Shown: positions 27,680-61,361 of the stretch, one piece after another
Layout: each line of letters starts with the position of its first letter
How positions within the stretch are numbered: position 1 is the first letter of the stretch
Virus record (IMG/VR): IMGVR_UViG_3300017774_005745
Location: 32,001 to 96,000 of that record
Direction: 5' to 3' (one strand)
DNA from: a virus
Length of the DNA stretch: 64,000 nucleotides
Position numbers and translations under genes: made by a program
Notes under the pieces: generated by a model
Databases searched by the model: none
What the model saw: only the letters and a program-made list of their open reading frames with translations
Told to the model about the DNA's origin: nothing

Positions 27680-27706
27680 CTTATGCCCTCATTTTTCAAA
27701 GACTTG
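27680..27706 (-). promoter_or_regulatory. Putative phage promoter, MAARW-N14-GGNATAAG class
   Basis: Minus strand CAAGT-CTTTGAAAAATGAG-GGCATAAG in the divergent intergenic region. Confidence 0.55.
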
Positions 27707-27719
27707 TTCGCGTCTTTTA

Positions 27720-27749
27720 TTGACCTACAGTAGATAGAGGACTTACACT
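27720..27749 (+). promoter_or_regulatory. Possible sigma70-like promoter
   Basis: TTGACC-N18-TACACT upstream of ATG 27792. Confidence 0.35.
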
Positions 27750-29639: not shown

Positions 29640-30170
29640 ATGACAACTAGAATCCACGTTGGTTCTTTCTTCGACGAGCTTGAGAAGATCTCCTCCGCAG
29701 GCCTGGAACTCGCAGGTCTTGGTGTTCTGGCCGCCCCGAGCGTTAAGACACTGATGGATCCTTCGGCAAAGAAGAAGGAGAAGAGCCACGCGAAGTTTGA
29801 AACTGCAGGACTCGGTCTTCTTGCAGCCCACCCTGCGTACGAGATTGGAAAGAAGCTGCTGACTAAGAAGGCAGCTACCGTCTCAAACCCAGCGATGATG
29901 CGTAATCACATGCTGGTCGATTCACAGAAAGCTGCCATCAAGGCACCTGCACAGGCCGCCCCAGCGTTGATGAAGAAAGACCCATCTCATTACTCAGACT
30001 TCACCCCTTCTGCATCTGTGGGACATCAGCCGGTCCAGAAGGCAGCTCCCGCCCCGATGAAGAGCACAAGGGCACTTCCTTCTGCTGGTCCTGTCATGAG
30101 CGCAGCACGCCCCGCAGCCAAGGCTACTGGCGTGATGGCTCGAATCGCTAACACGTTCCGGAAGGCGTAA
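29640..30170 (+). CDS. Basic Ala/Lys-rich putative internal virion protein
   Basis: N-terminal FFDELEKISS motif; AAGGA RBS. Confidence 0.5.
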   Translation: MTTRIHVGSFFDELEKISSAGLELAGLGVLAAPSVKTLMDPSAKKKEKSHAKFETAGLGLLAAHPAYEIGKKLLTKKAATVSNPAMMRNHMLVDSQKAAIKAPAQAAPALMKKDPSHYSDFTPSASVGHQPVQKAAPAPMKSTRALPSAGPVMSAARPAAKATGVMARIANTFRKA

Positions 30171-31105
30171 TGAAGAGTCCAGAACTAGAACTGTACGAGC
30201 GTCTTCGGGGTGCTGAGGCTAAGAAGCCAACGGCACCTTCGGAGGGGTCTGCCATGGAGAAGGAACTCAGGAAAGAGAATCCAGACGTCTCGACTCCACT
30301 TACAGTTCGAAACATCTTCACTCACTTCGATACGCATCCAGTAGTCCTGGACCTGGCACTCCTCAAGGCGTTTGGGGTTGATTGGTTCTCTTGGGATTCT
30401 TCTACACTGTACCAAGAGATTCAGCGTGTGTTCTTGTCTCAAATCTCAGAACACGCACGTGCGAAGATTCAAGCAATCAAGACTCTCCACGTCTCAGATA
30501 AGCCGTGGACGAGTTGGCAGGTCTTCGAGAAGGTCATTCAAGCTCTGAATAGCAGCATCCCTCGCTGGGAGTTCATGCAGGCTCCCTCGCTGGACCAGCT
30601 CTTTGCAGGGATTGATATCATGACCTCTATTCGTCCGGAGATTTTCGACGACGAAGTGAAGGCGTATATCGCAGCCGCTGTGTTGAACGAGGATGTCTTC
30701 TTCGTTCCCCCGCCCCTGGATTTTGCTCAGGTAGAAGTAAGTCACCCGAGGTACGTGTGTCTAGATTGTGGGAGCGAGGACTCTGCTCTCTTTCATGACG
30801 GAATCTGCGACACATGCTCCCAACGCTTTGACCCAGAGAACGGCTTCTCTTTCCAACCAGACCCAGACCTCATCCGAGACGGCAAAGGAAAGAACGTCAA
30901 GCTGGTTCTTCAGTTCGACCCGGACCCTATTGAGACTCGTTGGAATGAAGTAAAGGATACTCCAACGAAAGATGTAGACCTCCAAGAGACCCAGGTAGAC
31001 GTTCAAGTCGCAAAGCTTCTGCTCTCTCGCGACTACATGAACATCCGACGCAGACAACTCTCAGAGCAGCTTGTTGCTCTCAAGTCTTGGCTAGGGACCG
31101 TATGA
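30170..31105 (+). CDS. Hypothetical protein with zinc ribbon
   Basis: 311 aa; CLDCG...ICDTC; TAATG coupling. Confidence 0.75.
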   Translation: MKSPELELYERLRGAEAKKPTAPSEGSAMEKELRKENPDVSTPLTVRNIFTHFDTHPVVLDLALLKAFGVDWFSWDSSTLYQEIQRVFLSQISEHARAKIQAIKTLHVSDKPWTSWQVFEKVIQALNSSIPRWEFMQAPSLDQLFAGIDIMTSIRPEIFDDEVKAYIAAAVLNEDVFFVPPPLDFAQVEVSHPRYVCLDCGSEDSALFHDGICDTCSQRFDPENGFSFQPDPDLIRDGKGKNVKLVLQFDPDPIETRWNEVKDTPTKDVDLQETQVDVQVAKLLLSRDYMNIRRRQLSEQLVALKSWLGTV

Positions 31106-32085
31106 ACCTCATGACCGTTAGATCGCTCCTTGATGAGCTTGAGAAAATCGCCGTCTCTGAGGAGTGGATTCGACGCCATGCTAGGAGAGGATCCCTACTG
31201 AGACATTCACTCAGTCGCGATGAGCATGGCGCTAGACTCGAAGGAGATCCTTTTGGATCGTATTACAAGACTCTCAAAGGAAAAGAACGGCCCCCTTTTG
31301 CCGGTACGAAGAGTACGTTGAAGGATGACCCACGTACACGTAACAAGAGACAAGCTAAGATAGATGGTACGTGGGAAGGCTTTGATGACTACTCTAGAGG
31401 ACAGAGACTCAAAGAAGTAGGTGGAAAAGAATATAGTAAGCAGAAACCATCTAATAAATCACCACCTACTCAAACAAACTCATCACCGACATCTACTCAA
31501 AAACTTCCTTCTTTTGCTAAAAAACACTGGAAGAAGGGTGTTGCTGGTCTCGCTGCAACCGGCCTTGCTGCTGGTGCCTACGCTCTTCATAAGAAGAGAA
31601 AAAGTAATCGTGAGAAGACGGCAGAGTCCGAAGAGGGAGGTGCTGTGAACTACGTAAAGGGCATCGGAAAGAATCTCAAAGGGGCAGCTAAGGACCTAAC
31701 GCATCCAATCTCAAGGGCTCACCACGAGCTCAGGAGAATGGGACGAGACATCAACTCAGCGATTACTGGGAAGAAGGGTAATAGACAACTCACTCCCATG
31801 CAGAGAGCTGGTAAAATTGGGAACCACGGCCTAACTGCTGCATTTACCGTCCCGGCCGCCGCTGCCGCACTGAAGAAGGATCCCTCTGGACAAACATCCC
31901 GTGCAGAGCGAGTATCAAGATTCGTAGGCTCTACGATTGGAAACCTCGCCACCTCTCGAAGAGGTCTCTCGGGTTCGATTGCGGGAAGCATCGCCGGAGA
32001 CCAAGCAGGAAAGCTGGTCGGTAAGGGAATCAATAAGGTGACTGGTTTCAAGCCCAAGAAGACTGAACAAGAGGCAACTAAGTAA
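31102..32085 (+). CDS. Basic two-module putative internal virion protein
   Basis: LLDELEKIA N-terminal motif; internal EKTA; G/A-rich hydrophobic helices; ATGA overlap with the upstream gene gives start 31102. Confidence 0.55.
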   Translation: MNLMTVRSLLDELEKIAVSEEWIRRHARRGSLLRHSLSRDEHGARLEGDPFGSYYKTLKGKERPPFAGTKSTLKDDPRTRNKRQAKIDGTWEGFDDYSRGQRLKEVGGKEYSKQKPSNKSPPTQTNSSPTSTQKLPSFAKKHWKKGVAGLAATGLAAGAYALHKKRKSNREKTAESEEGGAVNYVKGIGKNLKGAAKDLTHPISRAHHELRRMGRDINSAITGKKGNRQLTPMQRAGKIGNHGLTAAFTVPAAAAALKKDPSGQTSRAERVSRFVGSTIGNLATSRRGLSGSIAGSIAGDQAGKLVGKGINKVTGFKPKKTEQEATK

Positions 32086-34163
32086 TGTCACTCATTGATG
32101 GCGTAAACGGAACCTCTCGATTCTCCGGTCAACGTGGGAGAACAGCCGACGGCTTGTCGAGGAGTGGTGTTCGTTACCCATCTCCCTTCTTCGACATCGG
32201 TCATACGTATCTCCCTCCGTCTCTGAAGGCACTCCTTCGGTGGTGCCGGTACTACTATCTCGTGAACCCGCTCATCAATGCGGTCATTCACAAGATGTCA
32301 GAGTACCCCATTACAGAGATTGTCATCGACGAGAAGGACCCAGCTATCAAGGATAAGTGGGACACTCTCCTCGGTGGTGTTCTTCGCTACAGACCATTTC
32401 AGATTGAGATCGGTCTGGACTACTACACTTACGGAATTTGCTTCGTAACGATTCACTTCCCGTTCGACAAGTTCCTCATTTGCCAATCCTGTAAGCACAA
32501 AGAGAAGGCTTCGAAGATTGCCTACAAGTGGAGAAACCTCGATTACGTTATCGAGTGTCCGAAGTGCAACACCGTCGGACCTGCCAAGGTTCAAGACTTC
32601 TACAAGCGAGACTTGAACGGTATCCGTCTGATGCGGTGGAATCCCGAGTACGTGAACGTCGACCCCGCGTTCGCTGGGGCAAAGCCTGTCTACACCTTCG
32701 AGCTCCCGCTTCAGGTACGAAACGATGTTCTTCTTGGAAAGAAGAGCGTCCTCGATACCATTCCAGACACCTTCATCGAGGCGATGAAGAGAGGGAAGTA
32801 CGTTCGGTTCTCGGACGACAACATCTTCGTCTTCAGAAGACCGATCATCAGCCAGAAGGACTCTGGATGGGGCATGCCGCTTATCATGCCTGTCCTGAAG
32901 GATACTTTCTATCTTCAGATTCTCAGGAAGGCGCAAGAGGCTATTGCACAGGAACACATCGTTCCAATGCGCGTTCTCTTCCCCCAGGGAAACAGCAGCA
33001 CATCTGACCCGTATACAACTATCTCCCTCGACTCATGGAAAGGAAGAATCGAAGGAGAAATCGCGAAGTGGAAGTACGACCCGAACTATATTCCAATTCT
33101 CCCTCTTCCAATCGGGAGTCAAACAATCGGCGGGGACGGTAGAGCGCTGATGCTTCACCAGGAAATGGAAGTCTGGTCGAGGCAAATCGTAGCTGGTATG
33201 GGGGTGCCCCAGGAGTTCGTCTTTGGTGGAATGCAGTACTCAGGAAGCAACGTCTCAATGAGAATGCTTGAGAACATGTTCCTCGGGTACAGAACAGACC
33301 ACGACCTGATGCTGAATCAGTTCACAATCAAGCGTATTGCTGCGTTCATGGGATGGCCTGCAGTGAAGGCCCATATGCGTCGCTTCAAGATGGCCGACGA
33401 CCTGCAACGTTCTGCCTTCTTCTTCCAGCTTAACCAGGGTCAGAAGATCTCTAACCAGACTCTTCTGCAAGAAGTTGATTTCGACCCAACTACGGAAGAT
33501 GCACGTATCAAGGGTGAACTCGATAGGCAGATTGAACTCAATCGCAAGATGCAGGTTGCACAAGCTTCTATTCAGGGCGAGATGCAGTTGGTCCAAGCCC
33601 GGTATCAGAAGCAGGCAACCGAACTGGTTTCTCAGGCTCTCCAAGGCGGAGCACCTGGGGCTCCCCAAGAAGCTGTCAATGCTCAAGCAGGTGCTGGAGT
33701 TGCGTCTGGTGCGCCTCCTGGTGCGCCGGAAGCACCCCAACCTGGAGAGCCACAAGCTCCTGGTCAGCCGGGGACCACAGGTCAAGAGGGCGAGATGCTC
33801 CAAGGACCTCAGGTCAATCCGGGAATGCCCGAAGGGTCTACGGTCTCAGCGGAGAACGCACAACAGGCACCCGCAGAAGGACTGCCCGCAGGAATTGCGA
33901 GCCCTCTCGATATGGGTACTCAGGGTGGAGGATTCAACCTTCTCTATCTCGCTCGAAGGGCAGCCACTACCCTTCAGAAGATGGACGAAGGCTCAAAGAT
34001 GTCTGAGATGAATAGAATGCAGATGACGAGTCCACAGCTCTATAGCTTGGTTCTTCAAATCATTCAGTCTGAGAAGGGTTCTCAAGAGAATCCATTGAGC
34101 GCCACTCAGAGTCCACAGCCGACTCTGAAACCATCGAGACGTCCATCCTCCACTGGTGTGTAA
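32085..34163 (+). CDS. Portal protein
   Basis: YYYLVNPLINAVIHKMSEYPIT, RWNPEYV, GWGMPLIMPVLKD, AGMGVPQEF portal-like blocks; P/Q/G-rich C-tail. Confidence 0.75.
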   Translation: MSLIDGVNGTSRFSGQRGRTADGLSRSGVRYPSPFFDIGHTYLPPSLKALLRWCRYYYLVNPLINAVIHKMSEYPITEIVIDEKDPAIKDKWDTLLGGVLRYRPFQIEIGLDYYTYGICFVTIHFPFDKFLICQSCKHKEKASKIAYKWRNLDYVIECPKCNTVGPAKVQDFYKRDLNGIRLMRWNPEYVNVDPAFAGAKPVYTFELPLQVRNDVLLGKKSVLDTIPDTFIEAMKRGKYVRFSDDNIFVFRRPIISQKDSGWGMPLIMPVLKDTFYLQILRKAQEAIAQEHIVPMRVLFPQGNSSTSDPYTTISLDSWKGRIEGEIAKWKYDPNYIPILPLPIGSQTIGGDGRALMLHQEMEVWSRQIVAGMGVPQEFVFGGMQYSGSNVSMRMLENMFLGYRTDHDLMLNQFTIKRIAAFMGWPAVKAHMRRFKMADDLQRSAFFFQLNQGQKISNQTLLQEVDFDPTTEDARIKGELDRQIELNRKMQVAQASIQGEMQLVQARYQKQATELVSQALQGGAPGAPQEAVNAQAGAGVASGAPPGAPEAPQPGEPQAPGQPGTTGQEGEMLQGPQVNPGMPEGSTVSAENAQQAPAEGLPAGIASPLDMGTQGGGFNLLYLARRAATTLQKMDEGSKMSEMNRMQMTSPQLYSLVLQIIQSEKGSQENPLSATQSPQPTLKPSRRPSSTGV

Positions 34164-36247: not shown

Positions 36248-36274
36248 CTTATACCCAGACAGTTGAATGACTTT
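36248..36274 (-). promoter_or_regulatory. Putative phage promoter, MAARW-N14-GGNATAAG class
   Basis: Minus strand AAAGT-CATTCAACTGTCTG-GGTATAAG at the head of islet 1. Confidence 0.5.
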
Positions 36275-36275
36275 G

Positions 36276-36303
36276 TTGACCTGGCCTCAGCGATGACGAT
36301 AAG
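36276..36303 (+). promoter_or_regulatory. Putative sigma70-like promoter for the RNAP gene
   Basis: TTGACC-N16-GATAAG about 90 nt upstream of GTG 36395. Confidence 0.4.
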
Positions 36304-36394
36304 GTCGTATTTCAAGGTTCAATGACCTCTGCTGCGATGAGGTAGAGCCGGGAACGCCATAAACCACTGCGCAGGGTGGCCGAAAGAGGATGAC

Positions 36395-39300
36395 GTGGAT
36401 AACCTGACTCCAGAAGGTTCGTTCGACGTATTGAAGAACAATATCACCACTACCATCTCTTCTTTCTTTCCGTACGAAGGAAAAACGCGCCGTCTCCAGA
36501 TTGACAAAATCTGGGTGGACGACAAGCTCAATACCGAAGACATCCAGTCCCAAGCCCAGGCAAAGGACATGGATAGGACGTGGGGCGTTCCCGTTAAGGC
36601 GGACATCTCGCTCGTCGATAAGTTGACCGGCAAGGTCATTGATAAGAAGTCGATGACTGTTGCAAGACTTCCGAAGCTCACCAATCGATACGGATTCATT
36701 GTCGATGGAAATGAGTATCAGGTCGACCACCTGTTTCGTTTGAAGTCGGGAGTATACTCCCGCATCCAGGACAACGGTGACTTGGAGTCCGAGTTCAACC
36801 TTGTTCGTGGTCCTGCCGGTAACCGCTTCTCCATCAAGCTAGAAAGAGAGAAGAAGAGATTCTTCATCAAGAAGGGCGATGCACACATCCCTCTCTATCC
36901 CATCCTCAAGGCGATGGGAGTCTCAGATGATCAGATGGAGAAGGACTGGGGAAAGGAAATCTTTCTCGCGAATAAGCCCAAGACAGAAGACAAGACCCTC
37001 AAGTCGCTTCAGTCTTTCTTCAAGAAGACCTCCTTCGATGATGTCGTTGAGCCTACCGATGTAGCAGGCTACGGTAAGTACGTTCACGACTTCTTCGAGA
37101 AGACGGTTCTTCGCCCCGACACGACAAAGATTACTCTCGGTCGAGAGGCGTCTAAAGTAGACGGCCAGGTTCTTCAGATTGCTGCGAACAAGATTCTCGG
37201 TGTCTCTAGAGGAACGCATCAGCCAGACGACCGAGATAGCCTCGCCTTCAAGGAGATTGTCTCGGTCGAGGACTTCCTTCCTGAGAAGATTGAACGCGCT
37301 GCCAAGACCATCAAATCAAAGCTTCGCAACACGATTGACCTCAAGGACAAGCTGTCTGTGTCTGAGGTTGTATCAGCGGACCTCTTTGCCCGCCCCATCC
37401 GTGAGTTCTTCACAAAGGGCGGCTCACTGACAGAGCGACCGGACCAGACGAACCCAATCTCAATGATGTCCGGTCATCGTAAGACCACCCTCATGGCCTC
37501 GGACTTGGGCGGTATCAAGCGAGACCACTCACTCACCGATGAGATGCGTGTCGTGAATCCGAGCCACTTCGGCTTCCTCGACCCAATGCACACGCCTGAG
37601 TCTGAGCGTACTGGCATCACCCTGCATCTTGGCATGGCTGCTCGAAAGAATGGAAAGGAGCTGGAGACTCCTGTCTTCGACATCAAGAAGAACAGCATTC
37701 AGTACATGACGGCTCCCGCGTTCCACGAAGTGTCGGCGGTTCTTCCCGACCAGGTTCGTTGGGTCAAAGGAAAGCCAGTTCCAGTTGCTCCAACGGTCAA
37801 GGTCAAGCTCCCAGGCGGCTCCATTGAGCTCCGACCATTCTCTGAGGCTTCGTTCGTATTGCCCTCCTCCAAGGGCATGTTCGATATGGCCTCGAACCTG
37901 ATTCCCTTCCTTGCATCCAATCAAGGAAACCGCGTCTCGATGGCGGACAAGCAGATGGAGCAGGCTATCAGTTTGAAGTTCCGTGAGTCGCCTCTTGTGC
38001 AGTCTAAGACGGACCACGCTCAAGCTGGAATGACCTTCGAGAAAGTACTCGGAGGATTCAGTTCGCACAGAGCCTCTGTTTCAGGAACTATCAAGTCAAT
38101 CAAAGACGACCACATCGTCATCAACGACGGTAAGAAGAACCACCAAGTTCACCTCTACAATCACTTTCCCTTGAATGACCCGAAGGGAATGATGCACTCT
38201 GAGGCGGTGGTTGCTGTTGGAGACAAGGTCACTCAAGGACAGGTTATCGCCGACACCAACTTCACCAAGAAGGGTGTCTTGGCTCTTGGGTCCAACCTTC
38301 GAGTTGGTTACATCCCGTACAAGGGGTACAACTACGAAGACGGTATCGTCATCTCCGAGACGGCGTCTCAGAAGCTCAGCTCAGAGCACTTGCATAAGAA
38401 GTCGGTTGAGTTCGACCCAGAGAACGATGTGGTCTCGAAGCAGAAGTTCCTGTCGTTCGCCGCGACACGGGCCAATCAGCTTACGAAAGAGCAAATCAAT
38501 CTCCTCGACGATGATGGTATCGTTCGAGTTGGTTCGAAGGTCAGTCCTGGGCAGGTGCTGATTGCCGCCGTCGGAAAGAACCTCGCGTCGCGCCAGAGTG
38601 GGGCTCTTGCTGCCCTCGGCAAGAGAGCATTCCAGCCATACAAGGATAAGTCACTTGTATGGGATGAAGACCATCAGGGAGAGGTCGTCAAGGTAATCAA
38701 AGACCCGTCTGGAAAGAGTGCGAAGGTCTACGTCAAGACAGTCGAACCTCTCGTTATCGGCGACAAGCTCTCAGGACGGCACGGTAACAAGGGCATCGTG
38801 ACCATGATCCTTCCGGACCATGAGATGCCATTCACCAAGGACGAGAAGGGGGAGAAGAGACCTCTTGAGGTTCTTCTCAACCCTACTGGCGTTCCGACTC
38901 GAATCAACGTCGGACAGGTGCTTGAGACTGCCGCTGGGAAGATTGCGGAGAAGACGGGCAAGACATACATCGTCAATAACTTCGAAGGACCCATCTCGGA
39001 CAACACCCAGAAGGTCATTCAAGAGCTCAAGCAGCACGGTCTCTCAGACGAAGAGAACGTCTACGACCCAATGCACCCGAGTAAGGTCCTTGGTTCTGTT
39101 CTCGTCGGTCCTCAGCACCTTCTCAAGCTCAAGCACCAAGTAGAGAAGAAGCTCACCGTTCGAGGCGGCGGGACTGACCTCAATGGACGCCCTCTCACCT
39201 ACGACGTCGACAAGTCTCCTACGAAAGGTGGCGAACGAGGCGGTCAAGGAGTTGGAGCTCTCGACTTCTACTCTCTGTTGGCGCACAACGCTCGTCACAA

Positions 39301-42300
39301 CATTCGTGAGATGGCGACGTACAAGTCTGACATGCAGGATTCTACCTTCTGGAACATGATTCAAGAAGGGTATGAGCCGCCGCCACCGAAGGCTCCCTTT
39401 AGCTATCAGAAGTTCGTTGGTCTCTTGAACGGACTGGGCGTGAATGTCGATAAGAAGGGCTCTGTTCTTCAGCTCACTCCGCTCACCGATGCAAAGGTAA
39501 TGGAGATGGCAGGAGGAGCACGCGGTGAGCTCTCGAAGCCTCACCTCCTGCTTCGTGCAAAAGACTTGAGAGAAGAGAAGGGTGGCCTCTTCGACCCCAT
39601 CGCTACAGGCGGTCTCTCTGGCAACAAGTGGAGCTTCATCAAGCTCATCGAGCCAATCCCAAATCCCATCTTCGTTGGCTCAAACCACCGGCCTGGACCC
39701 GTTCCTTCCCTTCTTGGATTGAAGATGAAGGAGTTCGAGTCTGTGATGACGGGGGAGACGAAGCTCAATGGAAAGACGGGAGGGCATGCAGTCCTCGATG
39801 CTCTCAAGAAGGTGGATGTTCCTGGAGAGATGAAGTCTCTCCGAGAGAAGCTCCCGACACTTACTGGAGCTGACCTGGACAGAGCAAACAAGAAGCTGAA
39901 GTACCTCATGGCTCTCTCTGAGACAGGGCTGAGTCCCGACGTGGCGTACATGATGAAGGTGGTTCCGGTCCTTCCTCCTGCTTTCAGACCCGCGACCGTT
40001 ACCCACAAGGGAGACCTTCAAACTTCGTCACTCAACGGTCTCTACAAGAACATCGCAATCCTCAACAACAAGCTCACTGAGGTTGATCCGAGAACGTACT
40101 CAGAGACGCACAGAGCTCCGCTACGTTCTCAACTCTATGAGAGCGTGAAAGCGCTGCAGTCTATTGGCGGTTCTGTCGGTTACGACATGGATACTCCTGC
40201 GAGCTCCAAGAGAGCCCTGAAGGGTATCCTTGACATCATCGGAGGAGGAGAGGGAGAGCAGCCTAAGGATGCCTTCTTCCAATCCAGACTCATCAAGCGC
40301 CGTCAGAACCTTTCGATTCGTTCTACCATCGTTCCAGAGCCCAAGCTTGGAATTGACGAGGTCGGTCTCCCTCGTGGTGCGGCAATGGAGCTCTACAAGC
40401 CATTCGTTGTCGCCGAACTCTTCAAGACGGGCTTCCGGCCTCTTGATGCGCAGCTTGAGATGAAGAAGGGGTCGAAGGTCGCATTCGATGCTCTTGAGCG
40501 TGTGGTGAAGGACCGTCCTCTTCTTTTGAAGCGTGACCCCTCTCTCCACAAGTTCTCAGTCATGGCGTTCACCCCGAAGCTGATTGAGGGCAAGGCTATT
40601 CAAATCCACCCTCTCGTCACTGGCGGCTATAACGCAGACTTCGACGGGGATACCATGGCAGGGACTGTTCCTCTCACCAGAGAGGCAGTCGATGAAGCGA
40701 AGAAGATGTTCCCGTCTAAGAACCTCTTCTCGCCGACAACTGGCGCTGTCATGTACTCGCCAACTCAAGATTCAATGTTGGGACTCCACCTCATCTCTCG
40801 ATGGGGCACTAAGACGTCCAAGACCTTCGCGTCTCCAATCGAGCTCAACAAGGCCTTCGACAAGGGTGAGGTGACTCCGACAGACGTAGTGAAGGTCGGA
40901 GGGAAGGAAACGACTCTTGGTCGGCTTCTCTTGGAGTCGAGAATGCCGAGAGACTTCCACCTCAATAAGGACATTCTCCACAACCCTCTTTGGGTCATTG
41001 ATAAGAAGTCACTGACTTCTCAAATCATCACTCCGCTTGCAAAGAACCATACGAGAGACTTCGCCCATGTCGTTGACCAATTGAAGGACCTGGGTAACGA
41101 GTGGGCCTACAAGATGGGGTTCTCGTTCGGTCTGAAGGACCTTGCGACGATTCCGCAGCGTGGGAAGATTCTTGGAGATGCCAACAAGCTCGCCATCGAC
41201 ATCAAGAAGAATGTCAAAGACAAGGGAGAGCAAGACAAGCAACTCATCGAAGTCTACCAGAAGGCCACAGAGCAACTGGAGCACGCAGCCAGAATGCCTT
41301 CAGGTCAGAACAGACTGGCAGACATGGTTATCTCTGGGGCACGTGGTAAGCCTGAGCAGCTTCGCCAGATGATTGCGGCTCCCATGCTGGTCCAAGACTC
41401 CCATAACAACACCATACCGACCCCTATCCTTCGAAACTACGCAGAGGGATTGGATATTGGAGATTATTGGCTCGCACAGCACGGTGCTCGAAAGGGCACT
41501 TTGCAGCGCGTTCTTGGCACTTCTGAGCCTGGTGTTGTTTCGAAGGACATCATCAACTCCACTATCGCCACCATCATCGCCTCTCCTGACTGTAAGACGA
41601 CGCATGGGATGCTTATGGAGGTCGGTCACAAAGACATCAACGACCGCTACCTCTCAAAGAGCTACAAGCTCAAAGACGGACACGAGATCAAGGCAGGCAC
41701 CCTCATCACTCCGGAAGTTCTCAACCACTTCAAGAACTCAAAGATTGATAAGGTCTTGGTACGGTCTCCTCTTAAGTGCCAGCACGGAGAGGGAATCTGT
41801 GCGAAGTGCTTTGGTCTGAACGAGAGCGGCAAGCTCCACGAAGTCGGCATCAACATCGGAGTGCTTGCAGGGCAGGCACTCTCAGAGCCTGCTGTTCAGA
41901 TGGCGATGGATGCCTTCCATACGGGAGGTGTTGCATCCGGTAGAGGTGCAATGTCTGTGGACCGTCTGACTCGTCTCAGGAACGCGCTGAATCTTCCAGC
42001 AAAGCTCAAGAACTCTGCTACACTCTCAAGAGTCACTGGTAAGATTACAAACATCAAGAAGGACGCCGTCGGTGGTGTGGACCTCTTCATTGGAGACGAG
42101 AAGCACTTCGTTCCAAAGGACCTGGTCAATCACGACATCAAGGTGGGGGACGAGGTCAAGAAAGGACAGCAGGTCTCTCACGGATTCACGAACCCACACC
42201 ATCTTCTCCCACTCACTGACATGCACACTGTTCAGAACCACCTGACCAATGAGATGTATGGTGGGCTGTATGAGAAGGAAGGCGTTCGAAAGAGAAATGT

Positions 42301-42658
42301 CGAGGTCGTCGTACGTGCTCTCACGAATCTAACGAAGGTAAAGGACCCAGGGTCGAGCGACTTCATGCAGGGCGATATCGTTCCGACTTCTGTCGTTGAG
42401 GAGTTGAATAGAGGCCTGTCGAAGGATAAGAAGCACATCACACACGGGCCTATACTGAAGAGCATCTCTCAGATTCCGCTCACAGGAACGACCGACTGGA
42501 TGAGTCGCTTGAACTACAGAGAACTTCACAGCACTCTGCAACAGGCGGCGGCACAAGGATGGAAGTCAGATATCCACGGCAAGAATCCAATCCCAGGCGC
42601 TGCCTTCGGTGCTGAATTCGGGAAGCCTTCTGCAGGTAAGCCTAAGGGTCACTACTAA
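36395..42658 (+). CDS. rpoBC: Single-chain DNA-directed RNA polymerase, beta-beta' fusion (2087 aa)
   Basis: Beta motifs GDKLSGRHGNKG (38759-38794), NPTGVPTRINVGQ and KLKHQVEKK; beta' motifs PVLPPAFRP, RDPSLH, NADFDGD (40631-40651), HGARKG, CKT...CQHGEGICAKC zinc site and QMAMDAFHTGG trigger loop; no internal stop. Confidence 0.97.
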   Translation: MDNLTPEGSFDVLKNNITTTISSFFPYEGKTRRLQIDKIWVDDKLNTEDIQSQAQAKDMDRTWGVPVKADISLVDKLTGKVIDKKSMTVARLPKLTNRYGFIVDGNEYQVDHLFRLKSGVYSRIQDNGDLESEFNLVRGPAGNRFSIKLEREKKRFFIKKGDAHIPLYPILKAMGVSDDQMEKDWGKEIFLANKPKTEDKTLKSLQSFFKKTSFDDVVEPTDVAGYGKYVHDFFEKTVLRPDTTKITLGREASKVDGQVLQIAANKILGVSRGTHQPDDRDSLAFKEIVSVEDFLPEKIERAAKTIKSKLRNTIDLKDKLSVSEVVSADLFARPIREFFTKGGSLTERPDQTNPISMMSGHRKTTLMASDLGGIKRDHSLTDEMRVVNPSHFGFLDPMHTPESERTGITLHLGMAARKNGKELETPVFDIKKNSIQYMTAPAFHEVSAVLPDQVRWVKGKPVPVAPTVKVKLPGGSIELRPFSEASFVLPSSKGMFDMASNLIPFLASNQGNRVSMADKQMEQAISLKFRESPLVQSKTDHAQAGMTFEKVLGGFSSHRASVSGTIKSIKDDHIVINDGKKNHQVHLYNHFPLNDPKGMMHSEAVVAVGDKVTQGQVIADTNFTKKGVLALGSNLRVGYIPYKGYNYEDGIVISETASQKLSSEHLHKKSVEFDPENDVVSKQKFLSFAATRANQLTKEQINLLDDDGIVRVGSKVSPGQVLIAAVGKNLASRQSGALAALGKRAFQPYKDKSLVWDEDHQGEVVKVIKDPSGKSAKVYVKTVEPLVIGDKLSGRHGNKGIVTMILPDHEMPFTKDEKGEKRPLEVLLNPTGVPTRINVGQVLETAAGKIAEKTGKTYIVNNFEGPISDNTQKVIQELKQHGLSDEENVYDPMHPSKVLGSVLVGPQHLLKLKHQVEKKLTVRGGGTDLNGRPLTYDVDKSPTKGGERGGQGVGALDFYSLLAHNARHNIREMATYKSDMQDSTFWNMIQEGYEPPPPKAPFSYQKFVGLLNGLGVNVDKKGSVLQLTPLTDAKVMEMAGGARGELSKPHLLLRAKDLREEKGGLFDPIATGGLSGNKWSFIKLIEPIPNPIFVGSNHRPGPVPSLLGLKMKEFESVMTGETKLNGKTGGHAVLDALKKVDVPGEMKSLREKLPTLTGADLDRANKKLKYLMALSETGLSPDVAYMMKVVPVLPPAFRPATVTHKGDLQTSSLNGLYKNIAILNNKLTEVDPRTYSETHRAPLRSQLYESVKALQSIGGSVGYDMDTPASSKRALKGILDIIGGGEGEQPKDAFFQSRLIKRRQNLSIRSTIVPEPKLGIDEVGLPRGAAMELYKPFVVAELFKTGFRPLDAQLEMKKGSKVAFDALERVVKDRPLLLKRDPSLHKFSVMAFTPKLIEGKAIQIHPLVTGGYNADFDGDTMAGTVPLTREAVDEAKKMFPSKNLFSPTTGAVMYSPTQDSMLGLHLISRWGTKTSKTFASPIELNKAFDKGEVTPTDVVKVGGKETTLGRLLLESRMPRDFHLNKDILHNPLWVIDKKSLTSQIITPLAKNHTRDFAHVVDQLKDLGNEWAYKMGFSFGLKDLATIPQRGKILGDANKLAIDIKKNVKDKGEQDKQLIEVYQKATEQLEHAARMPSGQNRLADMVISGARGKPEQLRQMIAAPMLVQDSHNNTIPTPILRNYAEGLDIGDYWLAQHGARKGTLQRVLGTSEPGVVSKDIINSTIATIIASPDCKTTHGMLMEVGHKDINDRYLSKSYKLKDGHEIKAGTLITPEVLNHFKNSKIDKVLVRSPLKCQHGEGICAKCFGLNESGKLHEVGINIGVLAGQALSEPAVQMAMDAFHTGGVASGRGAMSVDRLTRLRNALNLPAKLKNSATLSRVTGKITNIKKDAVGGVDLFIGDEKHFVPKDLVNHDIKVGDEVKKGQQVSHGFTNPHHLLPLTDMHTVQNHLTNEMYGGLYEKEGVRKRNVEVVVRALTNLTKVKDPGSSDFMQGDIVPTSVVEELNRGLSKDKKHITHGPILKSISQIPLTGTTDWMSRLNYRELHSTLQQAAAQGWKSDIHGKNPIPGAAFGAEFGKPSAGKPKGHY

Positions 42659-43749
42659 TGGCTGTTACAAATCAAGGAACAATCCCGGCGTTCATCGAGT
42701 CGGGTAGAGTACTCGATGTCGATATCAGTTCGTTCACTCTCTCTGTTACGACTCAGTTCTCGAAGAAGCCCCAGACCGGAATTACCTGGTCCTCTCCATA
42801 TCTTCACTTTGTGAATGGAGAAGGAATCCACTTCATGCCGGAGGTTGGGAGTCTTTGTTGGATTTGTTTCCCCTCTGATGGAAACCGGCCCTTTGTACTT
42901 GGATGGGCTCCTGCTGCAGACGAAGGAAACTTCAGAGCACGCAGGCCAGACATGAATCCTGGTGACCTCTACCTCGGCACACGAGACGAGAACTTCCTGA
43001 TTCTCCGTCGTGGTGGGGTAGTTCAAATCGGGGGAGGCCCGCTTTCTCAACGGCTCTTTCTCCCCGTCACAAATACAATCAAGGATTTCTGTGAGAACTA
43101 CTCTCTCCAGACTCTTGGAGGAGAGCTCAGTTGGACTGTTCAGAGGTCTGAAAACGATACCGACGGCAACAGACCCACTGTCTTGAAGGTCCAGGCAAGA
43201 GAGTTCGCTTCGGACGAGAAACCCCTTGCAGAGCTTCAAGTCGGTTCCCACGGAAGCGGCCAGAATACTATCTTGAGTCTGACAATCAAAGAATCTGGAT
43301 CTCAAGGAGCTGCGAGGAAGATTTCCCTTACACTCGGTAAAGATGGGAATGTGACCTGGGAAGTTGCTAAAGACGTCGTCTGGACAGTTCAGGGCAAGTT
43401 TACCATCGACGCCCAGCAGGATGTGACTGTAAAGAGCGCGGCTAAGGTCACCGTCAGTGGTGGGAGTACGGTTGAAGTACAAGGCCAGAGTGGTGTAACA
43501 ATTGAATCTGCTGTTGGAATCATCAACGTTAAAGCATCTACGATTAAAATGGGCTCTATGGTCTTGGTCGGAAATGCACCCCAACCGGTGGCACTTGCTC
43601 CTGCCTTGATAGGTTGGCTAGCAGCTCACATCCATTCTATCGTCCCAAACCCTGCCCTCGCTCTTCCAGGACCGCCTCAACCGACGACCCCTCCATTGGT
43701 GCCACCACCTGCACCTGCAATGACTTCGACCACTCTTCTGGCAACCTGA
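42658..43749 (+). CDS. Baseplate central spike (gpV/Gp5 OB-fold type)
   Basis: GEGIHFMPEVGSLCWICF OB-fold motif; C-terminal beta-strand repeats (VTWEVAKDVVWTVQGKFTIDAQQDVTVK); terminal HIH metal-binding tip motif. Confidence 0.75.
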   Translation: MAVTNQGTIPAFIESGRVLDVDISSFTLSVTTQFSKKPQTGITWSSPYLHFVNGEGIHFMPEVGSLCWICFPSDGNRPFVLGWAPAADEGNFRARRPDMNPGDLYLGTRDENFLILRRGGVVQIGGGPLSQRLFLPVTNTIKDFCENYSLQTLGGELSWTVQRSENDTDGNRPTVLKVQAREFASDEKPLAELQVGSHGSGQNTILSLTIKESGSQGAARKISLTLGKDGNVTWEVAKDVVWTVQGKFTIDAQQDVTVKSAAKVTVSGGSTVEVQGQSGVTIESAVGIINVKASTIKMGSMVLVGNAPQPVALAPALIGWLAAHIHSIVPNPALALPGPPQPTTPPLVPPPAPAMTSTTLLAT

Positions 43750-43762
43750 TTCAAGGAGACCT

Positions 43763-46591
43763 ATGCGCCCGCTTTTCATTGATGAGACCTCTGAAGACTC
43801 GAAGACAAAGGAAGCGGGATTCACTCACCGTCTTTCTGAGACTCCTGATAACTGGGGTCAAGAGATTGGTAGCGAGCTTCATCGTCAGCTTCCGTTCTTG
43901 TCAGACTACGAGGTGAACGTCACCCTCGACAAGGTCGACCAAGGCCGGGGCTTTGCGTTTGGATACGCAGACATCTCGAATAGAACTGAGCGCCCAGAGG
44001 TTGAGCACGAGGAAGCGGGCATTCCCCACATCCGTGTTCCGCTCATTGCAGAAGAGCGTCAGGTTCGTCCGTTCTCCGTCTTTCTAGACGGTGAGAGAGT
44101 TCTTCCTCTCGGTGAAGAGAGAATTCGTGAGACTCTGTTCAACCCAGGAATGTTCGACCTCTCCACATCCGTGCCGAGAGACCCAAGTCTTGTCGAGCCT
44201 CTGATGCCTCCGCAGCGTTCTGGTATTGGTATGGGCGGCGAATACAAGATGGCCATGGCGTATCCAGAGCCCGCTTCTATTGCCACGAATCTCGATTACC
44301 GAGATGAGTGGCTCCGGAAGTTCGTTGGGACTGCTCTCTTCCAGAAGGCTATGGAGCTCCAGAAGCAGTTCCTGTCTCTTGACCAGGAAGACCTCTCACA
44401 GCGAGAGATGGAGCAGACGATTGAAGAGTCCTCTGGCCGTGCCTCACAGAGAATGGCCAAGAATCTCCAACGAGACGCTCTCCACTTGGAGAAGAGGAAC
44501 CTGGATGTAGAACTTCTCGCCGCTCAGGCAGGGGTTCCAACGTCTGAGGCTCCTTCTCCTCACGAGCAAGGACTCGATGCTTCGGCTCCAGAAGGTGCGA
44601 TGGAAGAGGCACCAGAGGAAGCTGCTCCTGCTCCCAAGGCTCCAAAGGAGAAGAAGGCCGGTATTCCGAAAGGCATGCAGGAACTTGCCAAGGGAAAGAA
44701 GTTCTTTCAGATGGATCCATACGTCCAGCGGAGAGTTGCTGCCAATAGTATGGGGAATGCGGCCAGGAAGCAGAAGAACCACGGCCACAAGATGCTCGAC
44801 ATCAAGGATGGACAGGTTCAGAAGAAGCGCGCAAAGGAGCTTCTTGAGAAGAATGCCTTCAAGCACATCTCGAAGGAGCAGTGGGAAGCCATCTACAAGA
44901 GCGACAAGATTCAGAAGATGATTCAGAAACACATGACCCACGACCACCCTGAGGTTATCAACGAGGTCTATTCGCTCGCAGCTAACCAATACGGATATCA
45001 CCCAAAGGTATACCCACCTTCTCCAGGTCAGCAGGCTCAGAAGGCACAGGCAGCTAACATGGGTGGGGCACCGAAGCCTGCGGCTGCCGCTCCAGCGGCC
45101 AAGCCAGCTACGAAGACGGCATCACTTCTTGAGGCAATTGCTCCGACGCTTCGTGAGACAGACAGAGACGCATTCGTTGAGAAGGTTGCAAACGACGCCA
45201 CCCTCCGTGCGGGCTTCCGTCGTTCTGGAATTGCCTCGGTTCTTGTCAACGTGATGGATACGAAGCTCGCATCCGCAAGGGACCGTATGTCTGCCCTTGC
45301 AGACGCAATCGAACCCTCCGTGGTTACCTTCCAGAAGCTCCCAGGTGGGGACTTCCTCGTCAAGTCAGCAAACGTTCAAGCGTTTGCTGGTGGCGAGCAG
45401 GCTCAGGGTCAAGTGGTTCCGTTCCAAGAAGTCGCCGAAGCAATCGGAACTGAGCCAGCGAGAGCGATGCAGCCAGGACAGATTGCAACTGCTGTGTCTG
45501 ACCCTGTTAAGGGCGACTCAGCAGACGAGTCTGAGTTCGACTCCATCTCTGAGTTTGGCCGCTACAAGGTCCAGGGAACCGACGGCAAGGAGCGGGAAGG
45601 CTGGGTATTCCCTCAAACGTTTGCTTGGGATGAGAACCTTACTCCACAGAAGACGGGTCTCTTCATCTCAGACAACGCGCACGCCATCCAGCAAGACTTC
45701 GCGGGCGCACGGGTTGCTGCAGAAGACATCAACCTTCCTACGGATATCCCCAAGGGTCTTGGAATCTTTCACTCGAAGAACGGAGACTCTGCCTCTGCTC
45801 CCATCGAAGTGAAGTTCGGTATGACTGGGTCTGACGGAGTTCCGAAGTACGTTGGTATTGATTCATTCGGAAACGAAGTCAAAGTCTCGGTTGTTCCTGG
45901 CCTCAAGACTCCTCAGAAGATTAGCGAAGGAGAGTATGCCCTCCCTCACGGTTGGGGATTCACTCGCCTTCCTTCGAAGGTCTCTCTTTCCGAGAAGTCG
46001 GATAGCATCGGCACTCAGTCGAAGTTGAAGAAAGAGAAGACATCTGCAGTTCTCTTCTACAACGGCGCATTCAACATCGTTGGTGGGTGTGGCCTCGATA
46101 AGGTGTCGGCTGACCTCCGCCACAGCATTGATGCGGTCGGTGCCGAGTTCATGCTGGGACTTCTCGGAGTTGATGGCGTTTCTGCCAAGCAGAAGGTTGC
46201 GGAAGCCCGTAAGATCGGGTCAGTGACCTTGACGGGACTCAAGACCATCGTTCCTCTCGCAGAGCGTTTCCAGGAGTCTATCAAAACTGCCTCGGCACTT
46301 CTGTCGAAGATTCCAAATCTCAAGAGAGACCTCATCAAGGAGGCCTCGATGATGGAGGACCAGGGAACCGTAGATAAGGTTCTTGCCCTGAACTTCGTCA
46401 ATCCTGAGAACCTCACCACGTTCATCGAGTATCTCCCTGAGCTTGAGAGATGCAGCGAGAACATGGCGGAGATGGTTCTTGCGGGCTACATGGGCATGAG
46501 AGAGATTCCTGTAGGTGCTGTAGAGCGTTCCATGAAGAACATGGAAGAGGTTGTCCAGAGCCTCAAAGCACTTCAGTATACTCAGGAGTAA
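43763..46591 (+). CDS. Large putative virion/head protein with K-x-A-delimited modules
   Basis: 942 aa, AAGGAG RBS; KEAG, KMAM, KKAG, KTAS (twice), KLAS and KEAS motifs separate compositionally distinct blocks. Confidence 0.5.
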   Translation: MRPLFIDETSEDSKTKEAGFTHRLSETPDNWGQEIGSELHRQLPFLSDYEVNVTLDKVDQGRGFAFGYADISNRTERPEVEHEEAGIPHIRVPLIAEERQVRPFSVFLDGERVLPLGEERIRETLFNPGMFDLSTSVPRDPSLVEPLMPPQRSGIGMGGEYKMAMAYPEPASIATNLDYRDEWLRKFVGTALFQKAMELQKQFLSLDQEDLSQREMEQTIEESSGRASQRMAKNLQRDALHLEKRNLDVELLAAQAGVPTSEAPSPHEQGLDASAPEGAMEEAPEEAAPAPKAPKEKKAGIPKGMQELAKGKKFFQMDPYVQRRVAANSMGNAARKQKNHGHKMLDIKDGQVQKKRAKELLEKNAFKHISKEQWEAIYKSDKIQKMIQKHMTHDHPEVINEVYSLAANQYGYHPKVYPPSPGQQAQKAQAANMGGAPKPAAAAPAAKPATKTASLLEAIAPTLRETDRDAFVEKVANDATLRAGFRRSGIASVLVNVMDTKLASARDRMSALADAIEPSVVTFQKLPGGDFLVKSANVQAFAGGEQAQGQVVPFQEVAEAIGTEPARAMQPGQIATAVSDPVKGDSADESEFDSISEFGRYKVQGTDGKEREGWVFPQTFAWDENLTPQKTGLFISDNAHAIQQDFAGARVAAEDINLPTDIPKGLGIFHSKNGDSASAPIEVKFGMTGSDGVPKYVGIDSFGNEVKVSVVPGLKTPQKISEGEYALPHGWGFTRLPSKVSLSEKSDSIGTQSKLKKEKTSAVLFYNGAFNIVGGCGLDKVSADLRHSIDAVGAEFMLGLLGVDGVSAKQKVAEARKIGSVTLTGLKTIVPLAERFQESIKTASALLSKIPNLKRDLIKEASMMEDQGTVDKVLALNFVNPENLTTFIEYLPELERCSENMAEMVLAGYMGMREIPVGAVERSMKNMEEVVQSLKALQYTQE

Positions 46592-49751: not shown

Positions 49752-49778
49752 CTTATCCCAACGGATGCTCGTTTCTTG
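49752..49778 (-). promoter_or_regulatory. Putative phage promoter, MAARW-N14-GGNATAAG class
   Basis: Minus strand CAAGA-AACGAGCATCCGTT-GGGATAAG, about 20 nt upstream of the rnhB ATG. Confidence 0.55.
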
Positions 49779-50073: not shown

Positions 50074-51867
50074 ATGACCGTAGTTACCAGTGAAGAGTAC
50101 TTCAGAAACAACTCCAATGTCGTCATATCGGAGAGTGGTCAGCCTGAGCCAAAGGAAGAATGGGATTACGAGAAGGAGGTCTTCGAGGGGTTCCTCGACC
50201 CTGATGAGATTGCGAAGCAGCAATCCGCCCTCCTCTCAGTAACGCCTTCGCAGTTCGTAGAGTTCTCCGTTCGAGTACCCGACAAGAAGTCTCAGAAGTT
50301 CCTCCCGTTTTCCTTTGATGGGAGAAAGTACCTTCGTCTGCCGTATGACACGCCCGCAAAGCGAACCCTCTACAAGTGTGGACGACAGGTAGAGAAGTCT
50401 ACCCTGCTAGGTAACAAGACGCTTGCCTATTGCTGCATCATCAACGCCTTCAACGTACTCTACGTCTCTCCTACAAACCAACAAACGAAGACCTTCTCTC
50501 AAGACCGTCTCAAAGAGCCAATGGAGACTTCGGAGGTCCTAAAGGCGTGGACCACCACGAAGCTCAGCGACAGCGTTTTCTTGAAGAAGTTCATCAATCG
50601 AAGCCAGATTACTCTCCGCTACGCATACCACAACGCAGACCGTACCCGTGGTATCCCTGCGGATATGATTCTCCTGGACGAGCTCCAGGACATCATCACG
50701 GAGAACATTCCGGTTATCGAACAGTGCGCCTCGCACTCACCGTTCAAGATCTTCATCTATTCTGGAACCCCAAAGTCGTTCGATAACTCCATCGAGTACT
50801 ACTGGTCGAACTACTCTACTCAGAATGAGTGGGTTGTCCCTTGCGACCACCACGGTACTCCTTCGGACCCTTCGACCTGGTTCTGGAATGTCCTTGGGGA
50901 AGAGAACATCGGAAAGAAAGGTCTCATCTGCTCCAAGTGCGGAGAGATTATCAATCCAATGCGCCCAGAGTCTAGATGGGCGATGATGAATGCCTCTGTG
51001 AAGGACAAGCTCACAGAGCCTTACGAGGGGTACAGAATTCCTCAGCTCATGGTTCCGTGGTTGAAGTGGAGTGAAATCCTAGACTCCTACACCACGTACC
51101 CACGACAGAAGTTTTTCAATGAGGTTCTTGGCGAGTCCTTTGACTCTGGAACCCGTCCACTAACTCGGCAAGACGTTATCGACAACTGTGACCCGAGTCT
51201 TCGAATGACTCCAGAAGGTCTCAGTGCCATCAAGAGCAAGATGTCAGGAGGCATGGACATCTTCGCAGGTATTGACTGGGGCACTGGTGAGAACACGTAC
51301 ACCATCATGTCCTTGGGGACGTACATCGACGGGAAGTTCACCATCTTCTACATCCATCGATTTGAAGGACAGGAGATGGAGCCACCGGTTCAGATAGAAA
51401 TCATTGCCGAGCTCATTCGGAAGTGGGACGTCAAGCTGGTTGGGGCAGACTACGGAGGCGGTTTCGATAGAAACGACGCCCTGGCGAGAATCTTCGGTAG
51501 AAACCGTATCGTCAAGTACCAGTACTCTACTCCAGGCCAGAAGGTGAAGTGGGATGAGAATCTCCACCGTTTCCTCGTTCACCGAACAGAGGTCATGACG
51601 GATATGTTCACCGCCATCAAACGAAGAGACGTCTTTCGGTTCCCGAACTGGGAGCAGTTTGAGGATCCGTTTGGTAAGGACCTTCTGAACATCTTCAGCG
51701 AACTGAACGAGCAGCTTCGGCAGATTCAGTACATGAAGACGCCAGATGCTACAGACGACTCGTTCCACTCTATCTTGGTCTGTCTTCTTGCCTCGATGCT
51801 GAAGTACCCACGCCCTGATATTCTCTCTCCGACGGCTAAGACATCAGGTGGTGACTCTGACGCCTAA
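50074..51867 (+). CDS. terL: Terminase large subunit
   Basis: KCGRQVEKST Walker A variant; ILLDELQD Walker B; YSGTP; zinc-binding Cys cluster; FAGIDWG RNase H-like nuclease motif; DDSFHS. Confidence 0.88.
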   Translation: MTVVTSEEYFRNNSNVVISESGQPEPKEEWDYEKEVFEGFLDPDEIAKQQSALLSVTPSQFVEFSVRVPDKKSQKFLPFSFDGRKYLRLPYDTPAKRTLYKCGRQVEKSTLLGNKTLAYCCIINAFNVLYVSPTNQQTKTFSQDRLKEPMETSEVLKAWTTTKLSDSVFLKKFINRSQITLRYAYHNADRTRGIPADMILLDELQDIITENIPVIEQCASHSPFKIFIYSGTPKSFDNSIEYYWSNYSTQNEWVVPCDHHGTPSDPSTWFWNVLGEENIGKKGLICSKCGEIINPMRPESRWAMMNASVKDKLTEPYEGYRIPQLMVPWLKWSEILDSYTTYPRQKFFNEVLGESFDSGTRPLTRQDVIDNCDPSLRMTPEGLSAIKSKMSGGMDIFAGIDWGTGENTYTIMSLGTYIDGKFTIFYIHRFEGQEMEPPVQIEIIAELIRKWDVKLVGADYGGGFDRNDALARIFGRNRIVKYQYSTPGQKVKWDENLHRFLVHRTEVMTDMFTAIKRRDVFRFPNWEQFEDPFGKDLLNIFSELNEQLRQIQYMKTPDATDDSFHSILVCLLASMLKYPRPDILSPTAKTSGGDSDA

Positions 51868-52429: not shown

Positions 52430-52456
52430 CTTATCCCGAGGTCCTTCACGTATTTG
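52430..52456 (-). promoter_or_regulatory. Putative phage promoter, MAARW-N14-GGNATAAG class
   Basis: Minus strand CAAAT-ACGTGAAGGACCTC-GGGATAAG. Confidence 0.55.
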
Positions 52457-59296: not shown

Positions 59297-59315
59297 GGGA
59301 AAGGAGCCAACCAAC

Positions 59316-60236: not shown

Positions 60237-61361
60237 ATGAGTGCCGTCCCAGCAAAAGTAATGAACGATCTCTTCTTCGAAAAGATCGCAACGACCGAAG
60301 GCAAGGAGAAGATTGCCGAGTTCGGTGGAACGTACATCCGAGACCGTCTGCGTGAGGTTTCGTTTGCCCGCAAGATTCTCCCACCGCAGCCCGTGCAGCG
60401 CACCGAGTGCCAGCGTTCAGTGAACCACGACACCCTGGTGAAGATCATCGACATCGAGCCAAACTCGAAGGCCGTTGCTCTTACCTTCCGTGGCCAGCCA
60501 ACCGCTCGCTTCATCCGCGCTCCTCGTTTCGAGATTCCGTTCTTCACGATCTCGTCCGAGAAGTTTGAGAAGACGGAGCAGGAACTGCTCGCCTACGAGA
60601 TGCCCATCACCAAGATCATCGAAGAGAACTCGGTGAAGGACATCCAGGAAATCGAAGACCGTCAGTTCTTGACGTTCATCGAGGCGGCTGTTCAGGCGTA
60701 CCAGCTTGATGCAAACGGCAACGTTGCCACTGCATTCAACGCCACCAACGTCATCGCGAACTCGGTTGTTGGTGCCTCTGTGGTCAAGGGTGAAGGTACC
60801 CTGGCTGCTGGTGCAAACGACTTCGTCATCTACCCAATCCTCAAGCCGGACTTCGTGAAGCTCAAGAAGCTCCTGCACCGCCGTCGCCTGCGTGCGAACC
60901 AGATGGTCATGACCGAGCCGGATTATGACGACTTGACCAACTGGACCATCCAGGATGTTGGTATGACCATCGCTGGCGAGACTGCCACTGAGGGTTGGAA
61001 GGCCAACACGGTTGTCGGTCTGAAGATCATCCGCACCATCAAGACGGACCTCCTCCGCGAAGGTAACGTCTACTGCTTCACCGCTCCTGAGTTCATGGGC
61101 CGCTTCTACATCCTGAACCAGACCAAGTTCTACATCGACAAGATTGCGAACTTGATCACCTGGCAGTCGTGGGAAGACATCGCAATCGGTATCGGTAACA
61201 TCGCATCGATTGTGAAGCTGGAGCTCTTCGGAGGTTCAGTGACCCCAGGCGCGACGGATGTTGGTTTCGCGAACCTGTTGCCGAAGGCTGAGACTGACCT
61301 CTTCGCCATCAACAACCGCGCTGACGACGGTCTTACTGTCCCAGCCGTTGACCAGTTCTAA
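60237..61361 (+). CDS. Major capsid protein (HK97 fold)
   Basis: 374 aa; strongly C-ending codon bias; IRDRLREVSFARKILPPQPV N-arm; followed by a strong terminator; position after protease and scaffold genes. Confidence 0.8.
   Translation: MSAVPAKVMNDLFFEKIATTEGKEKIAEFGGTYIRDRLREVSFARKILPPQPVQRTECQRSVNHDTLVKIIDIEPNSKAVALTFRGQPTARFIRAPRFEIPFFTISSEKFEKTEQELLAYEMPITKIIEENSVKDIQEIEDRQFLTFIEAAVQAYQLDANGNVATAFNATNVIANSVVGASVVKGEGTLAAGANDFVIYPILKPDFVKLKKLLHRRRLRANQMVMTEPDYDDLTNWTIQDVGMTIAGETATEGWKANTVVGLKIIRTIKTDLLREGNVYCFTAPEFMGRFYILNQTKFYIDKIANLITWQSWEDIAIGIGNIASIVKLELFGGSVTPGATDVGFANLLPKAETDLFAINNRADDGLTVPAVDQF

Follow-up and report, generated by a model that had tools for sequence, protein, structure and literature searches.

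Two-barrel RNA polymerases (RNAPs) that are carried in the virion, that lack alpha or that consist of a single chain are each already known from phages. The phiKZ-type enzymes are two-barrel RNAPs that work without alpha (PMC7598289). They resemble those of AR9 in being omega-free as well and in being packaged in the virion for early transcription, but they comprise 4-5 polypeptides, occur as two paralogous enzymes and have no sigma70 recognisable by sequence. Single-polypeptide two-barrel enzymes, some of them virion-borne, are represented by gp66 of crAss phage phi14:2, gp96/gp64 of Thermus phage P23-45 and YonO (PMC10770324), which are too diverged to be aligned with cellular subunits and likewise have no sigma70. 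The tailed-phage RNAPs of the mReC lineage (Weinheimer and Aylward 2020, PMC7481178) can be aligned to beta and beta', carry NADxDGD and branch deeply outside Bacteria, with beta and beta' as separate genes in every supplement row examined. In the cellular RpoBC fusions of Helicobacter and Wolbachia the C-terminus of beta is joined to the N-terminus of beta'; these originated within bacterial phyla and keep omega and the zinc domain. Closest of all is Salmonella phage Arash (Gp206, Gp216 and the sigma Gp10), whose description labels the polymerase pieces beta and beta' and does not remark on fusion, promoter or mechanism (PMC10585845). Here we analyse a 64,000-nucleotide (nt) stretch of phage DNA, hereafter the window (positions 32,001 to 96,000 of IMG/VR record IMGVR_UViG_3300017774_005745), which is part of a complete 196,807-bp genome with terminal repeats and contains a gene for a single-chain beta-beta' RNAP. 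Our literature search, which most subscription papers lay beyond, found no description of this fusion and no paper combining the above traits in a near-bacterial enzyme accompanied by a true sigma70.

A preliminary description of the window had read beta and beta' motifs, in order, from one intact open reading frame (ORF), and its 2087 codons indeed carry the Pfam domains Rpb2_3 and Rpb2_6 followed by Rpb1_1, 2, 3, 4 and 5. As in other two-barrel beta/beta'-type enzymes, there are two double-psi beta-barrel domains with DxDGD, a bridge helix, the catalytic beta lysines, the beta ED pair and the trigger-loop His; two beta' arginines of the active site are also kept, and these active-site residues are invariant or nearly so among 91 aligned full-length homologues. 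An AlphaFold2 model of residues 480-1500 reached a predicted local distance difference test (pLDDT) of 87.8 and a predicted template modelling score of 0.77, and all of the 50 best fold matches of this core were bacterial or plastid beta subunits. Judged by its sequence, the ORF encodes the complete catalytic core of a DNA-dependent phage RNAP, with beta and beta' in one chain, and the enzyme is almost certainly active. Unlike the crAss, P23-45 and YonO enzymes, it retains about 30% identity to bacterial subunits (no bacterium being closer) and the bacterial layout of lobe, flap, clamp and bridge. The genome has one RNAP ORF, in a single copy by comparison with the Arash RNAP, and in this it does not fit the phiKZ type.

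The linkerless join of beta to beta' that had been suggested near positions 39440-39480 was confirmed, and in the AlphaFold2 model it forms a tight hairpin of two strands (pLDDT about 88-95). Its length is the same in 91/91 aligned full-length homologues, and a single ORF spans it in 88 of the 92 family loci, the other four being cut by contig ends. The chain lacks the E. coli insertions SI1, SI2 and SI3, both terminal tails and the four-Cys beta' zinc domain. It had been described as 660 amino acids (aa) shorter than E. coli beta plus beta', which is correct as arithmetic but overstates the reduction, because E. coli carries those insertions of its own; against Staphylococcus (about 2390 aa) the shortfall is about 300 aa. 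The models for cellular RpoBC proteins fit poorly, with scores of 572 against a cut-off of 5372 (NCBIfam NF007172) and 504 against 4632 (NF011417). Four changed positions in the rifampicin pocket lead us to predict that the polymerase is insensitive to rifampicin.

The absence of sigma, also claimed in the preliminary description, holds for the window only. Comparison of all Arash proteins with the genome located a homologue of Gp10 outside it, in the same gene context as in Arash and within a virion operon. This protein matches Pfam Sigma70_r3 above cut-off and RpoS with an E-value of 3e-7, and its 50 best fold matches all belong to the sigma70 family. Regions 2, 3 and 4 can be recognised by sequence and fold, with the WW dyad of region 2.3 changed; Pfam Sigma70_r2 gave no match anywhere in the genome. 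Homologues were found in 10/10 related genomes, and we therefore reject a sigma-less enzyme, as a conserved cognate sigma is encoded elsewhere in the genome. No homologue of the second sigma of Arash was found in the genome (best E-value 0.07).

The proposal that the enzyme has a promoter class of its own gained support from a motif resembling a promoter, CAA-N16-GGNATAAG, which lies on the strand opposite to that of the virion genes. The minus strand has 25 copies of the GGNATAAG part and the plus strand none, with 21 copies intergenic (about 6 and 5 expected), often 45-75 nt ahead of a start codon, and CAA stands exactly 16 nt upstream at 15 of 32 sites, where 0.6 would be expected. The motif was recognised by reading intergenic DNA; genome-wide counting of repeats and dyads did not detect it. 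In five relatives it likewise lies opposite the RNAP gene (15:0, 24:0, 15:0, 12:1 and 24:1), as it does in Arash (40:1). We infer that it reads like an extended -10 element with a final G where host sigma70 needs T. The minus strand encodes DnaB helicase, primase, PolA, RecA, ThyX and RNase HII. The virion operons, including that of the polymerase gene, are headed by promoters of the form TTGAC-N17/18-TAnnnT. Such a host-like promoter precedes the RNAP gene in 12/16 orthologous regions (chance 0.012 per 200 nt), lying 19-22 nt from a back-to-back phage motif.

We propose that the polymerase and the phage sigma would be expressed late, from the virion strand, and packaged in the head. Injected with the DNA, they would act as a two-protein holoenzyme at CAA-N16-GGNATAAG promoters and transcribe the early, accessory, replication and tRNA genes of the minus strand, while the virion operons, the polymerase gene among them, would probably be read by the host sigma70 polymerase. 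Phage N4 reportedly uses a similar late strategy. At the polymerase gene itself the overlapping back-to-back promoters might, speculatively, provide feedback by mutual exclusion. This chain of events, taken as a whole, seems to us somewhat probable. The wider statement, that a widespread and undescribed phage family injects a two-protein holoenzyme (beta-beta' chain plus true sigma70) which needs no alpha, omega or zinc domain and reads a -10 element ending in G, we regard as about evenly balanced.

Packaging of the polymerase in the virion is in our view quite probable. The gene order portal, RNAP, baseplate OB protein, 942-aa protein and terminase is widely conserved in the family, and RNAP and sigma genes both lie in virion operons. 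In the virion mass spectrometry of Arash, the RNAP is represented by 128 unique peptides, Gp206 has the most spectra, and the spectra per residue are 2.3 for Gp206, 2.0 for Gp216 and 2.0 for Gp10, whereas the second sigma is not listed (PMC10585845). These data are suggestive of packaging. Moreover, a short tag, [ED]K[IL][AS], is found 22 times in virion-strand proteins versus once in minus-strand proteins (15-fold enriched), and capsid and sigma bear it near the N-terminus, the sigma in the form EKI[AS]; it is possible that the tag is a packaging or cleavage signal.

The timing could instead resemble that of T7, with the host polymerase transcribing the RNAP gene first, the new enzyme and its sigma then reading the opposite strand, and nothing being packaged. 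Several points that weigh against packaging would suit this scheme. The conserved host-like promoter of the RNAP gene, followed by a structured leader just upstream of the start, would fit early expression equally well; the RNAP itself has no N-terminal tag; and the Arash proteome is of weak purity, as it includes many non-structural metabolic enzymes and its authors allow for carry-over (PMC10585845). Arash is, in addition, only about 30% identical and carries a second sigma that is absent here. However, such timing does not account well for the position of both genes in virion operons, for the virion-protein tag on the sigma or for the Arash spectra, where RNAP and sigma reach similar levels per residue and the second sigma is missing, and we consider it unlikely.

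The statement that alpha and omega are missing held for the entire genome: no match to alpha, the alpha C-terminal domain or omega was obtained with Pfam in the whole 197 kb, while control genomes were positive, and no alpha gene was found in five near-complete relatives. A highly diverged phage substitute for alpha, which counts against alpha independence, could escape Pfam. The equivalent of beta D1084, which we take to be an alpha-contact position, is D in 17/17 bacteria and in only 4/91 family members, being replaced in 87/91; at the G1215 equivalent 17/17 bacteria have G, whereas 88/91 family members have P or A. Compared with the bacterial core (alpha2-beta-beta'-omega), the enzyme is thus outside the bacterial clade and without the zinc domain, the alpha and omega genes and the contact Gly and Asp. 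From the missing alpha gene and the replaced contact residues, and with the phiKZ-type enzymes as a precedent for function without alpha, we consider it probable that it is independent of alpha, in which case the covalent join would replace the alpha2 assembly platform.

It is also conceivable that the single chain depends on alpha2 (and omega) of the host for folding or activity and acts as a replacement beta-beta' inside a hybrid core. The alpha-binding barrel regions keep their fold, and cellular beta-beta' fusions keep alpha. G1215 of E. coli beta contacts R45 of alpha, and alpha of B. subtilis binds without a contact of this kind (PMC13202282). Since B. subtilis manages without the R45-G1215 contact, host alpha might still bind despite the replaced residues. 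Nevertheless, the conserved Gly and Asp have been lost family-wide, the low identity holds for any bacterium, and with Salmonella and Vibrio as cultured hosts the enzyme does not track host sequence; a hybrid core is accordingly improbable.

That the phage sigma serves the phage polymerase, so that the latter works with it at the GGNATAAG motif, is very probable. Identity between sigmas follows identity between RNAPs (rho 0.92, n=9 contigs matched by length). A model of the sigma-polymerase complex scored 0.77, against 0.00 for the best control, the mark for such models being reached by 58/80 solved complexes and by 2/110 mismatched pairs. The runs share at least 57% of contacts with a partner pLDDT of at least 69, and sigma residues 88-107 (region 2) are placed on the clamp helices of the polymerase, as in solved holoenzymes, a likeness to which the pass of the model may be owed. 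Phage sigmas usually act on the host core (PMC7598289), and this one might redirect the host core to GGNATAAG promoters in the manner of T4 gp55 or SPO1 gp28, leaving the phage RNAP for another use, for example late transcription. Such redirection is very unlikely given the parallel divergence of the two proteins, the modelled docking on the phage clamp and the virion-strand promoters, which look host-type and not phage-type.

A beta' tree of 61 taxa (LG+C20, quick search; beta' only, with 18 bacteria, giant-virus RPB1 as outgroup and no archaeal sequences) separated Bacteria, mReC and the present family together with Arash into three clades, with supports of 99, 100 and 99 in the Shimodaira-Hasegawa-like approximate likelihood ratio test (SH-aLRT). 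The approximately unbiased (AU) test rejected a grouping of the family with Actinomycetota (p 2e-82), with the candidate phyla radiation (1e-4), with Proteobacteria plus Myxococcota (2e-4) and with three verified mReC sequences (8e-5); these values were computed for 28 taxa under LG+G4, where long-branch pull is a greater risk. That a host rpoB-rpoC operon was captured recently, or that two genes were joined by an artefact of assembly, would agree with the best matches among named proteins being bacterial, but both are rejected, as Bacteria are monophyletic without the family and more than 100 independent homologues are fused. As to a deeper common origin with mReC as sister group, the union of all phage RNAPs had an SH-aLRT of 89 in the 61-taxon tree, was not recovered in a further tree and was not rejected by the AU test (p 0.23). 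A cellular rpoB-rpoC fusion of 2284 aa, in a metagenome-assembled genome of Candidatus Paceibacterota (L216:163-7017), groups within Bacteria and largely keeps its zinc domain.

With regard to mReC, whose clade consisted of three contigs verified through sample and length against the supplement of PMC7481178 (L120, L157 and L288) and 11 look-alikes, the preliminary description had asked for a check of family novelty. Membership of mReC as published is rejected by the separate clade, the AU test, the single fused gene and the capsid family, since PF07068 had no match in this genome; the terminase family PF03237 matched only below cut-off. The three verified contigs also retain the zinc domain, unlike the present family. 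On the other hand, the enzyme is no isolated case but occurs in hundreds of phages, cultured relatives included. Among mReC-like enzymes, one type with a long beta and a beta' of about 1000 aa or longer (L184, L185, L193, L310 and L312) is also without the zinc domain, which the other type has retained, and some published mReC contigs encode both RNAP size classes. The supplement lists a contig from the sample of L004 (IMG 3300012683), perhaps L004 itself, with 'no detected mReC RNAP'. The survey pipeline may have missed fused genes.

Full-length fused homologues number more than 100, with lengths of 2080-2130 aa and 48-87% identity; many of them lie on contigs of 190-215 kb, and IMG/VR loci widen the family to about 30% identity. 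Its cultured relatives are Arash and Vibrio phages D69, D148 and D181, which share with this phage the well-supported clade, the join, the loss of the zinc domain, a Gp10-type sigma, the GGTATAAG strand rule and the virion genes for portal, terminase and capsid. In Arash and D69 the join is kept, but two genes encode the polymerase, the break falling behind the catalytic barrel at about residue 1502. These split forms nest among fused ones, and a tree that sets the fully fused enzymes apart as a clade of their own was rejected, which suggests that full fusion is the older state. None of the shorter relatives was clearly broken at the beta/beta' join; they end near residues 950, 1120-1140 and 1500, perhaps by truncation.

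To our knowledge, every cellular RNAP is assembled on alpha2 as its platform. The known alpha-free phage enzymes (phiKZ, crAss, P23-45) are too diverged to say much about the bacterial one, whereas this enzyme can be aligned over its full length and keeps a recognisable sigma70. It would allow the function of a bacterial-type core without alpha, omega and zinc domain to be tested directly, and likewise the shift of -10 specificity by a sigma. If our proposal is correct, no known sigma-dependent RNAP of the bacterial type would be simpler, and this one would branch off outside all the bacteria sampled. The polymerase and sigma genes together could be used as an orthogonal transcription system of two genes, probably insensitive to rifampicin. 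The enzyme also adds to the RNAP tree a deep branch absent from the mReC survey, for which cultured Arash offers a bench model.

Table 1. Features of the polymerase locus and its surroundings (window positions unless marked as genome positions).
Feature	Position	Strand	Remarks
Phage-type motif and host-like promoter, second divergent pair, heading the portal operon	27680..27749		motif 27680-27687 (-); host-like promoter 27720-27749 (+)
Portal protein, conserved upstream neighbour	32085..34163	+	
Phage-type motif GGNATAAG	36248..36255	-	paired back to back with the promoter of the RNAP gene
Host sigma70-like promoter TTGACC-N18-TAAGGT	36276..36305	+	upstream of RNAP gene
Conserved structured 5' leader: two stacked stems and a loop pairing beside the ribosome-binding site	36316..36388	+	directly before RNAP start
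Single-chain beta-beta' RNAP gene, 2087 aa	36395..42658	+	uninterrupted ORF, GTG start, stop overlaps next ATG
Rifampicin-pocket region, equivalents Q513E, H526G, R529K, S531T	37421..37495	+	sequence comparison
Equivalents of beta D1084 (here E810) and G1215 (here P892), alpha-contact motifs, both replaced	38822..39070	+	alignment
Beta/beta' junction, residues 1016-1029	39440..39481	+	modelled as linkerless beta-hairpin
Site of deleted beta' N-terminal zinc-binding domain	39581..39640	+	15 residues, 0 Cys versus 47 residues, 3-5 Cys in bacteria
Clamp helices of beta' (residues ~1214-1250), where the phage sigma is predicted to dock	40034..40144	+	complex model
Catalytic NADFDGD motif	40631..40651	+	DFDGD kept in 91/91 homologues
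Baseplate OB-fold/spike-like gene and conserved 942-aa gene, co-directional with RNAP	42658..46591	+	stop/start overlap at 42658
942-aa gene	43763-46591	+	beside RNAP in 64/98 loci
Phage-type motif ahead of RNase HII gene	49752..49759	-	
Terminase large subunit	50074..51867	+	
Phage-type motif	52430..52437	-	
Major capsid protein	60237..61361	+	cultured matches only Arash and Vibrio D69/D148/D181
Gene for a sigma70-like protein of 281 aa, homologous to Arash Gp10	genome 14799-15644	+	outside window, ~17 kb before its start

The 5' leader of the RNAP gene showed a covariation of 0.33, against 0.17 in shuffled alignments (0/500) and 0.09-0.12 in slid controls, in a test somewhat biased by drawing the structure from the window's own sequence. 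It is pseudoknot-like, with compensatory changes, and Rfam holds no family for it; possibly it is a translational control element. The 942-aa protein encoded downstream had no match in Pfam, PHROG or the ESM Atlas and is a candidate ejection or RNAP-associated protein. Examples of the [ED]K[IL][AS] tag occur in the genes at 60237-61361, 58229-59678 and 29640-32085 of the window, and a head-protease-like gene lies at 55390-56970.

Within the family, 75/91 members have Asp in place of the trigger-loop Arg (E. coli R933; residue 1839 of P0001) and the bridge-helix hinge is remodelled, so that nucleotide selection may differ from that of the bacterial enzyme. In many homologues (P0003, P0007, P0018, P0066 and others) the RNAP contains inteins of the LAGLIDADG/Hint kind, one to three in each. 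At three loci (L072, L078 and L086) the RNAP gene is interrupted only by in-frame TGA, which suggests TGA-recoded family members. Finally, 28 tRNA genes and a transfer-messenger RNA (tmRNA) gene lie outside the window, at genome positions 172013-193010, all on the minus strand; the start of the tmRNA tag presumably resembles myxobacterial tags and may offer a hint of the host.

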